The notes: a model not told the origin generated them from the letters alone. 34,584 nt of DNA from a virus (IMGVR_UViG_2734482772_000010), one strand, 5' to 3'; counted from the first letter of the stretch, positions 22,755-22,982 are shown. Numbers and translations: made by a program.

Positions 22755-22982
22755 ATCAGCTAAATGACGTGCTCTTATGCCACCATTCAGTAAACCGCAT
22801 TAATAGTCGCCGAACATCCCAAAACCGCATCCTAGCAGTGAAAGAACGACCAGCCCGGCACCCGAAAGCCGGGCTGGCCATCGTCCCACAGGAATGCGCT
22901 GTGAGCCGACCGGGGTTCAGTCAGTCTCGCGAGACCAGACTAGCCTGCCATATTTTTAATAATTGTAAAAGGCTTACAGATT

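Follow-up and report, generated by a model that had tools for sequence, protein, structure and literature searches.

A putative small structured RNA encoded head-to-head with dam in unrelated temperate phages

INTRODUCTION

Orphan Dam methylases are common in phages, where they affect restriction evasion, packaging and host epigenetics. To our knowledge, little has been learned of how these enzymes are controlled outside the mom system of Mu. Two kinds of regulatory element that lie next to the genes they control offer points of comparison. The C-protein operators of restriction-modification systems are palindromes placed upstream of methyltransferase genes, and the phage RNAs OOP (lambda), sar (P22) and c4 (P1 and P7) are cis-antisense RNAs with their own promoter and intrinsic terminator. 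In Mu, the weak mom promoter (Pmom, also called momP1) is overlapped by a divergent promoter, momP2, which competes with it for RNA polymerase (PMC3378877).

The DNA analyzed here is a stretch of 34,584 nucleotides from a virus (IMGVR_UViG_2734482772_000010), hereafter called the window, in which a dam gene is preceded by an intergenic region with two dyad elements. An earlier note on this DNA had described the dyads and proposed that they could be an operator, a small structured RNA, or a REP-like remnant. Our comparison of related loci suggests that positions 22839-22956 probably constitute an unannotated gene for a folded RNA of approximately 105 to 118 nt, encoded on the minus strand and reading away from dam, a degree of confidence that applies jointly to the gene and to the regulatory explanation developed below.

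RESULTS

Genomic context of the dyad elements

The window is an almost complete BcepMu-like transposable prophage of Enterobacterales, with Escherichia phage PhiKM (Bcepmuvirus) and Klebsiella phage KP12 among its close relatives. Its layout and the elements discussed below are listed in Table 1. The 193-amino-acid gene that diverges from dam encodes a DUF2441 protein. With this open reading frame (ORF) starting at TTG 22754, the gap up to dam covers 228 nt (22755-22982); with an alternative in-frame ATG (22745, three codons inward), it covers 237 nt.

Table 1. Coordinates of genes and sequence elements in the window
Feature	Position	Strand	Basis or remark
Late genes	507-21751	-	window layout
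Holin gene	likeliest start ATG 21718..21716	-	
Holin-proximal duplicate: decayed RNA 3' half, then intact late promoter core	21755..21885	-	alignments A4, A7
Accessory region	21811-24337		
Partial late promoter core CTATTAATGCGGTTTA, cut within the -10	22791..22806	-	junction of the DUF2441 cargo insertion
Predicted structured RNA gene	22839..22956	-	covariance model R1, 140.8 bits
3' tail GUUCUUUCA	22839..22847	-	invariant in 45 close relatives
H1', 12-bp GC-rich stem with 8-nt loop	22848..22879	-	contains 22850-22877; 11/12 pairs compensatory
H2', 11- to 12-bp helix	22880..22910	-	99.8% paired on minus, 74.8% on plus
Helix J, 5' strand GAAC	22915..22918	-	pairs with 22844-22847
H3' hairpin, apex = palindrome GTCTCGCGAGAC	22919..22941	-	9/9 pairs compensatory
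CAGGCU, family 5' motif (Y)AGGCU	22942..22947	-	kept from E. coli prophages to B3, VP882, UMP151
TATTTT, -10-like for dam	22951-22956	+	read from sequence
AAAAAT, -10-like for the RNA	22957..22952	-	read from sequence
Promoter-like site TTTTCA-16-TACAAT	22962..22989	-	choice of promoter scan
Shine-Dalgarno AAAAGG of dam	22967-22972	+	
dam, D12-class N6-adenine DNA methyltransferase	22983..23747	+	Pfam PF02086, E = 2.9e-29
cI-type repressor	24361-24867	-	
DDE transposase, in early operon	26650-28419	+	
Gam and GemA, in early operon		+	
Mor-family activator, in early operon	33226-33612	+	

The gap contains, as the earlier note had described, a 10-bp stem (CCAGCCCGGC / GCCGGGCTGG, loop ACCCGAAA) at 22850-22877 and a 12-bp palindrome (GTCTCGCGAGAC) at 22924-22935, 48 nt ahead of the start codon of dam (ATG 22983). 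A sequence search of the window retrieved each of them once. Perfect 10-bp stems with a loop of 3 to 8 nt occur at 2 places in the 34.6-kb window, compared with 0.16 expected, and the number of perfect 12-bp palindromes is ordinary (10, with 9.2 ± 3.2 expected). Taken alone, the palindrome would mean nothing, and both dyads are considered real because they are conserved and covary across relatives. The GC stem is 12 bp in full (22848-22879), and two elements had been overlooked, namely, a third hairpin, CACAG-N7-CTGTG (22887-22903, with an extended helix at 22880-22910), and a 4-bp closing helix formed by 22915-22918 with 22844-22847.

The element contains no GATC, as read from the sequence, and the idea that it is a target of Dam was dropped. 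A scan for tRNA and tmRNA gave no match. Two candidate ORFs were rejected, the first being a plus-strand ORF from the H2 loop (ATG 22894), which loses its ATG in several relatives and has variable positions anywhere in its codons, and the second a 41-amino-acid minus-strand ORF (22756-22881), which begins within H1 and is unconserved.

Strand and covariation of the fold

Consensus folding with RNAalifold yielded -51.2 kcal/mol and 43 pairs on the minus strand versus -30.0 kcal/mol and 29 pairs on the plus strand, and folding of the single sequence gave -55.2 kcal/mol (z = -3.1) for minus and -44.7 kcal/mol (z = -2.4) for plus. When the same 36 pairs are read in 45 close relatives, the minus strand pairs in 99.6% of the cells and the plus strand in 87.0%, and G.U cells number 208 and 3, respectively. 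Nearly all one-sided changes in the helices are G.U or U.G on the minus strand, which corresponds to C.A or A.C on the plus strand. By these measures, the folding strand is the minus strand, opposite to dam. The suggestion of a small structured RNA therefore holds with respect to a strand-specific, covarying fold, with the RNA strand being the one opposite to dam.

The covariation analysis across homologous loci that had been recommended as a check was extended to divergent clades, which covariance model R1 recovered among loci gathered via the holin gene or a looser pattern. In 86 distinct sequences, 27 of the 36 pairs have changed on both sides, and the covariation score is 0.365, versus 0.159 for column shuffles (none of 500 reaches the observed value) and at most 0.075 for slid partners. 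The 23 distant members display compensatory changes in 31 of the 36 pairs, with a score of 0.606 versus 0.214, and here too none of the 500 shuffles attains the observed score. Scores for slid-partner controls are 5 to 6 times below those observed, in alignments that are fitted to the covariance model and hence lean toward its structure. Two generic features of structured noncoding RNAs, compensatory changes beyond controls and strand-specific tolerance of G.U pairs, are thus present. A one-strand tolerance of G.T would also fit a structure in single-stranded DNA.

The pairing data also bear on the plus strand, where the structures could form a long 5' leader of the dam mRNA that controls translation, for example by anti-RBS pairing. 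RNAalifold of the plus strand predicts a 9-bp pairing of CUGUGAGCC (22899-22907) with GGCUUACAG (22971-22979), between the ribosome-binding site and the start codon, and both anti-RBS partners are almost invariant in close relatives. A leader of this kind is possible wherever the upstream genes read toward dam, as in the PhiKM-type layout, B3, KS9, and VP882, and the com-mom genes of Mu provide a precedent, as they are controlled via an mRNA hairpin. However, the helices are only 87% paired on the plus strand (H2, 74.8%), with ten pairs that depart solely via C.A or A.C. In a divergent clade, GAGCC has become GAAUC, which leaves GGCUUAC uncompensated, whereas H2' on the minus strand keeps G.U. 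In addition, the ancestral cargo-free layout has no plus-strand promoter upstream, and a structured plus-strand leader of this kind is considered most improbable. Pairing in trans of H2' with the ribosome-binding region of dam was also examined and rejected; it comprises 7 bp, two of them G.U, is buried in a 12-bp helix, and is lost in the divergent clade.

Architecture of the predicted RNA

From 5' to 3', the predicted RNA is composed of the (Y)AGGCU leader, hairpin H3', a three-way junction in which helix J encloses H2' and H1', and a U-rich tail. The transcript is likely to extend from approximately 22945 (or 22955) to approximately 22841, with (Y)AGGCU presumably at, or just after, its 5' end. 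In hairpin H3', bases 22936-22937 constitute a hypervariable internal loop of two bases. The top of H2' is formed by CACAG/CUGUG (22887-22891 / 22899-22903), which carries a hypervariable loop of 6 to 7 nt; in phage B3, the H2' stem has a different sequence and the pairing is preserved. The loop of H1' is free to vary in both sequence and length in the alignments of relatives. Helix J is found as GAAC/GUUC, GAGC/GCUC, GCGC/GCGC, AAGC/GCUU, and GGGC/GCCC, all of which are compensatory. The tail serves two parts of the fold, with GUUC (22847..22844) as the 3' strand of helix J and UUUCA as the U-rich end.

Pattern scans of viral and genome collections retrieved 63, and later 72, loci with the element. 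The sources of these loci include E. coli, Klebsiella, Pantoea, Mixta, Erwinia, Buttiauxella, Trabulsiella, and Limnobaculum. Some of the sampling patterns included CACAG...CTGT or GTAAGCCTTTT, and the apparent invariance of these two stretches is therefore partly an artifact of the search. The conserved unpaired stretches are too short to suggest a base-pairing seed and thus do not point to any target.

Symmetry of the H3' apex

An even perfect palindrome of at least 8 bp is present at H3' in 132 of 156 distinct family members, and one of at least 10 bp in 120, with essentially no even palindromes in the H1'/H2' part of the same members. More than 40 different apex palindromes were found, including GTCTCGCGAGAC, CCTACCGGTAGG, GTTCTCGAGAAC, GTCATCGATGAC, and GCTCACGTGAGC, and several different ones occur within one prophage group. 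An RNA hairpin can form without a self-complementary loop, and the exact dyad symmetry is therefore under selection of some kind. The selecting agent could be a symmetric protein bound to DNA or RNA, or dimerization of the RNA through its loop.

Of the features expected of an operator, exact dyad symmetry that includes the center is present and a conserved half-site sequence is not. The operator proposed by the earlier note is not borne out as a fixed protein site, given that the sequence of the palindrome differs by clade and the hairpin is kept, although a weakened form of it retains some probability because of the perfect symmetry, seen in 85% of the 156 members. If the promoter geometry described below is correct, the palindrome would overlap the -35 region of the dam promoter.

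A stricter version of this proposal holds that the palindrome, and perhaps CACAG-N7-CTGTG, are DNA-only operators for a dimeric protein at the dam promoter, with no function as RNA. It accounts for the apex palindromes in 132 of 156 members, center included, and for their near absence from H1/H2, and it is in line with the position of the palindrome center at approximately -33.5 from the putative dam start. The control of Mu Pmom by a dyad-binding activator (PMC3378877) also speaks for it. On the other hand, the more than 40 palindromes include different ones within one phage group with near-identical regulators, the palindrome and the CACAG motif are single in the window, so that no regulon is visible, and the loop of H2 has 6 or 7 nt and the H1 loops vary in length. 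Recognition of double-stranded DNA does not predict a G.U bias on one strand, and H1, H2, and J covary though far from any promoter. DNA-only operators are accordingly regarded as distinctly unlikely. The palindrome was also considered as a site for the late activator, and no second copy with up to 2 mismatches was found in the window, nor any at the late promoter; CACAG-N-CTGTG is likewise not repeated elsewhere in the window.

Ends of the transcript and the promoter region

The 5' boundary of the model is approximately 26 nt from the dam ATG, a distance that is constant across the enterobacterial family, in which a (G/A/T)AAAAT hexamer is kept 5 to 6 nt upstream of (Y)AGGCU. The -10-like hexamers for dam and for the RNA (Table 1) are offset by one base, and their -11A and -7T are therefore reciprocally paired (22952, 22956). 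Judging from these hexamers, the start sites would be at 22963 (+) and 22945 (-), 18 bp apart. The summary of Warman et al. 2021 in PMC10268837 describes bacterial bidirectional promoters as having symmetric -10 elements with such geometry. The site chosen by the promoter scan on the minus strand has a TACAAT hexamer that is unconserved in divergent clades, where TCCATT or TTCATT is present. A -35-like CTGTAA (22979..22974), 16 nt upstream of AAAAAT, is poor (3/6), and the promoter hexamers are less distinct in GC-rich hosts. We propose that the RNA and dam may start from one compact bidirectional promoter with -10 elements that overlap at 22951-22957. Because of this overlap, RNA polymerase would engage one direction at a time.

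At the opposite end, H1' constitutes the stable GC-rich hairpin typical of intrinsic terminators (12-bp stem, 22848-22879). A simple terminator rule gives no call for the window's own tail after H1' (GUUCUUUCA), possibly since the stem may extend into the tail through G.U pairs. In three relatives (L149, L168, and L182), in which the tail is CUCUUUUUU or CGCUUUUU, the homologous H1' hairpin was called terminator-like on the strand of the RNA. The family's tails are U-rich (UUUCA, UUUCU, UUUUU, and similar), and 24 of 85 contain 5 T in 8 nt, counted after helix J. No T-run was read after the GC stem on the plus strand. H1' and the U-rich tail are thus the predicted 3' end of the RNA. The earlier view that neither dyad is a terminator for a flanking gene stands for the protein genes, with the qualification that the GC stem would be placed as the terminator of the unannotated RNA gene.

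Association with dam across phages

In most E. coli matches, homology with the window begins abruptly at 22839, to the left of the GC stem, and other genes replace DUF2441. The block 22839-22982 (approximately 145 nt) is approximately 90% identical among relatives, versus approximately 77% for the dam coding sequence. The dyads thus travel with dam and not with the DUF2441 gene. In a megablast search of 5,426 complete E. coli genomes, dam was found in 556, and the RNA was found at 600 places in 556 of the 5,426 genomes, with a median of 1 and a maximum of 3 per genome. At the E. coli loci examined, the element is within prophages, beside dam. These data disposed of the proposed REP-like remnant. 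A GC-rich hairpin in an intergenic position does resemble a REP-like or other functionless host repeat, but the element is single in the window, has a median of one copy per carrying E. coli genome, adjoins a phage dam gene in a prophage setting, and shows extensive compensatory evolution; this origin is considered refuted.

Holin-anchored loci, which were counted only when at least 3 kb of upstream sequence was available, carry both dam and the RNA in 54 cases, neither in 13, and the RNA without a detected intact dam in 2, and none carries dam only. The RNA is head-to-head with dam in all 54 dam-carrying relatives and is found in 0 of the 13 dam-less ones. With the filters of the model turned off, the RNA was detected immediately upstream of a homologous dam, always on the opposite strand, in otherwise unrelated phages, the homologous Dam proteins of which are 63 to 66% identical. 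These comprise Vibrio phage VP882 (60.5 bits), Pseudomonas phages UMP151 and Phipami28 (60.2 bits), a Ralstonia phage (48.7 bits), Burkholderia phages KS9 and phiE125 (42 to 43 bits), Pseudomonas phage B3 (39.6 bits), and, weakly, Curvibacter phage TJ1 (21.8 bits).

Of at least 585 viral contigs that encode a relative, 80 were picked solely by Dam homology and searched with a broader model, R2, which found a full-length RNA opposite to the dam strand in 70 of the 80. The RNA and the dam ATG are no more than 40 nt apart in 53 of these 70 loci and 166 to 237 nt apart in 15. The long gaps contain a Com-like zinc-ribbon ORF in 12 of the 14 examined (three confirmed as PF10122), as in B3; in total, approximately one-fifth of the cassettes have a Com zinc-ribbon gene between the RNA and dam. 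In PhiKM-type prophages, KS9, phiE125, VP882, and B3, the genes upstream of the RNA read toward dam and are convergent with the RNA. Together, these loci show a constant head-to-head pairing of the predicted RNA with a dam or com-dam cassette across many temperate phages that are not related to one another.

The distribution of the cassette has a bearing on another possibility, that the minus strand folds as single-stranded DNA and serves recombination or mobility of the dam cassette (in the manner of attC or a recombinase hairpin) or replication priming. A structure kept without its sequence and with a strand bias would be expected in that case, the cassette has moved among Mu-like, lambdoid, and P2/N15-like phages with sharp boundaries, and one locus (L101) contains two adjacent cassettes and a dam remnant. 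Nevertheless, no recombinase accompanies the cassette, and its host phages are without a common single-stranded DNA stage. A U/T-rich tail and a -10-like element, both in fixed places, characterize a transcription unit, and the enterobacterial boundaries lie in the shared late-promoter core, as ordinary homologous recombination predicts. A single-stranded DNA element is thus very unlikely.

The late promoter and the cargo insertion

A conserved minus-strand motif upstream of holin, CTATTAACGC(T/G)(G/C)TTTAAAATCC (21789..21768), contains the -10 TAAAAT (21776..21771) of the late promoter. After it comes a leader hairpin in which the ribosome-binding site is sequestered. In Phi06-type prophages, which have no cargo, H1' is located 57 nt upstream of the late -10. 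The cargo of the window consists of DUF2441 and a 113-amino-acid ORF, and it was inserted with duplication. In the dam-side copy, the hairpins are retained and the late -10 is lost, whereas in the holin-side copy the promoter is retained and H1 has decayed. The different fates of the two copies indicate that the fold is kept by selection only in a copy joined to the dam side. The stretch TAAACCGCATTAATAG (22791-22806) had been a candidate part of the element and was rejected, as it is the truncated late promoter core left by the cargo insertion.

The proximity of the late promoter raises the question of a terminated leader of the late operon, similar to the PR'-6S RNA-tR' arrangement of lambda, with antitermination at H1'. 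The element does share its orientation with holin and the late genes, its H1' is 57 nt upstream of the late -10 in the cargo-free layout, and cargo genes separate the element from the lysis genes, an arrangement like that of stx in lambdoid phages. However, dam-less relatives retain the late promoter and the holin leader, and the element is absent from them even with the model filters off, which excludes a leader of the lambda PR'-tR' type. In PhiKM-type prophages, KS9, phiE125, VP882, and B3, the genes that the RNA meets are convergent, with their 3' end toward it, and the phage of the window encodes a Mor-family activator, not a Q-like protein. A late leader is largely refuted and scarcely tenable. 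The leftover role near the lysis promoter would be, at most, that of an insulating terminator in the BcepMu-like group.

DISCUSSION

Among described systems, com-mom of Mu is similar to the dam locus in that a DNA-modification gene of a transposable phage is concerned and in that com precedes mom, as a Com gene precedes dam in part of the cassettes. The momP2/Pmom pair also resembles the divergent overlapping promoter proposed here for the RNA and dam. The enzymes differ, with Mom in Mu and a D12-class Dam here, and the gin-com-mom region of Mu, in which the gap between gin and com is approximately 95 nt, contains no homologue of the RNA (best R1 score, 5.2 bits). No described function or conserved fold for the leftward transcript of Mu was found in the literature.

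OOP, sar, and c4 are likewise RNAs of approximately 70 to 120 nt with stable stem-loops and a terminator end (predicted in the present case), and they are placed opposite or beside the gene they control. The loops of cis-antisense RNAs vary freely because the cis-encoded target changes along with them, and hypervariable loops on conserved stems, as observed here, are what such RNAs allow. In contrast to these RNAs, the fold described here combines a self-complementary apex with a three-way junction that is closed by the RNA's own 3' tail, and there is no sequence or Rfam relationship between them. Moreover, in the cargo-free BcepMu-like layout, the transcripts of the RNA and of dam may only abut.

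Judging from its hexamers, the promoter region may share with the bidirectional promoters treated in PMC10268837 the reciprocal -11A/-7T, start sites 18 bp apart, and one mRNA arm with one noncoding arm. In the cases treated there, the divergent RNA is usually an unconserved by-product, whereas the RNA predicted here, from putative start sites, is conserved and covaries. With the operators of C proteins, the locus has in common a perfect palindrome just upstream of a methyltransferase gene, near the -35 position. The cassette is nevertheless without a C protein, a helix-turn-helix domain, or a restriction gene, its half-site is unconserved, and its palindrome is embedded in a covarying RNA fold.

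Searches for a previous description of the element were negative. Rfam 15 at gathering thresholds gave no match for the window and 10 related loci, and Rfam at E values up to 10 for 22500-23200 gave only miRNA-type noise and a match to a bare hairpin. The literature consulted on BcepMu small RNAs, Mu-like antisense RNA, the palindrome, VP882 noncoding RNA, and RNA motifs near adenine methyltransferases does not describe it. RefSeq shows no feature under the match in the E. coli records listed, and the annotation of phage B3 has two small "hypothetical proteins" here, encoded on the opposite strand. Small phage RNAs that have a terminator of their own and lie next to a regulated gene are a familiar kind of element, and the family itself appears to be both undescribed and widespread.

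The RNA is likely a divergent, promoter-sharing, and possibly antisense regulator of dam, and its role is most likely the control of the timing and amount of Dam. H1' and the U-rich tail would terminate the RNA and, in the BcepMu-like prophage, would keep leftward transcription from the Mor-type late (holin/lysis) promoter. Where the upstream genes read toward dam, the RNA would be fully complementary to the read-through dam leader and might exert cis-antisense control on it. In addition, the mature RNA may interact with a protein or dimerize via the self-complementary apex of H3'. A more ambitious model, which we put forward only tentatively and hold to be rather doubtful, is that the RNA is an obligatory partner of the widespread Dam/Com-Dam cassette, with a Y shape and an apex that dimerizes or is bound by a symmetric protein, and that in this form it sets the timing or level of methylation.

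Phages that differ greatly from one another carry a single conserved RNA fold beside members of one Dam family. The finding provides a testable handle on the regulation of dam and on promoter competition of the momP1/momP2 type, and it defines an RNA family with strong covariation support that is fit for submission to Rfam. If the obligatory-partner model is true, the RNA and the methyltransferase would form a new module in Mu-like, lambdoid, and P2/N15-like phages of Gamma- and Betaproteobacteria.

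Replacement and loss in the RNA-dam cassette

The prophage at locus L101, which lies on the same contig as L071, carries two copies of the structured RNA (1735-1852 and 2370-2487) that belong to different clades. An intact dam adjoins one of these copies, and a 5' remnant of dam adjoins the other. This double copy is the scar of a recombination-driven cassette replacement. A truncated element is present in Pantoea stewartii ATCC 8199 (L072, near 5573-5700): it breaks off immediately past helix H3, at the junction between ...GAGACCAGACTA and AATAACTG..., and the locus is without dam, with the DUF2441 side being kept. 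Neither of the two covariance models, R1 and the broader R2, matches an RNA in Halomonas phage vB_HboP_4908 (L221), which has a Dam homologue and a similar upstream gap. The same is true of ten other loci in which a comparable gap precedes the gene for a Dam homologue (L242, L249, L254, L256, L257, L262, L264, L265, L290, and L297). In these 11 loci, the RNA has either been lost or has diverged beyond the reach of the models.

Small reading frames at the RNA

The 5' region of the RNA (window 22943-22951, minus strand, and homologues) often reads AUG-N3/6-UAG, as AUGGCAGGCUAG in the window and, in other clades, as AUGAGUUAG or AUGCGAUAG. This motif lacks an evident ribosome-binding site and probably arises as a side effect of the conserved AAAAUR..G..AGGCU. 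In Pseudomonas phage B3, B3ORF46 lies entirely inside the RNA match (L162 2210-2328), and B3ORF45 merely abuts the 3' end of the RNA. Of these two small hypothetical ORFs, B3ORF46 in particular may be a misannotation.

Features surrounding the RNA-dam cassette

Features accompanying the RNA-dam cassette in the window and in phage B3
Feature	Position	Strand	Remarks
Late-promoter-like motif CTATTAACGC(T/G)(G/C)TTTAAAATCC	Window 21768-21789	Minus	Conserved; also in L001-L006 and L087-L161 (related loci)
Decayed duplicate of RNA 3' half and late promoter upstream region	Window 21755-21885	Minus	Overlaps ORF 21811-22152 (plus)
Holin leader hairpin GUCUCC-N9-GGAGAC	Window 21723-21743	Minus	Sequesters the Shine-Dalgarno sequence
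Hairpin GGTGGTGC-ATCTGCA-GCACCACC	Window 23763-23785		Between convergent dam and 181-aa gene (23792-24337, minus)
Near-consensus promoter TTGACA-16-TACAAT (11/12)	Window 24788-24815	Plus	
B3ORF45 and B3ORF46, small hypothetical proteins	L162 2079-2304 (Pseudomonas phage B3)	Opposite RNA	Annotation

Besides the GC-rich stem of the RNA, the window contains only one perfect short-looped stem of 10 bp or longer, at 4185-4212 (CCGGCGTCAGC...), inside the late-gene region. The hairpin downstream of dam has, on its minus strand, a T-rich run and is therefore probably a terminator, with greater strength in the leftward direction. The near-consensus promoter falls inside the 5' end of the repressor ORF (24361-24867), which is divergent, and precedes the first ORF of the early operon (GTG at 24854) by about 40 nt; it presumably serves as the prophage's early promoter.

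On the holin side, the decayed duplicate was left behind when the DUF2441 cargo was inserted. The overlapping 113-aa plus-strand ORF has no Pfam match, and because its start falls inside the duplicate, this ORF may not be a real gene. The late-promoter-like motif precedes the holin ATG by about 70 nt. It displays a TTAA-N6-TTAA symmetry that overlaps the -10 TAAAAT, and it occurs in BcepMu-like prophages both with and without dam. The Mor-family activator, whose gene lies at 33226-33612, presumably acts on this motif. In a divergent clade, the arms of the holin leader hairpin are CUGUUUCCAU...AUGGAGACAG, with changes in both arms that appear to preserve the pairing. This hairpin suggests that holin is under translational control through sequestration of its Shine-Dalgarno sequence.
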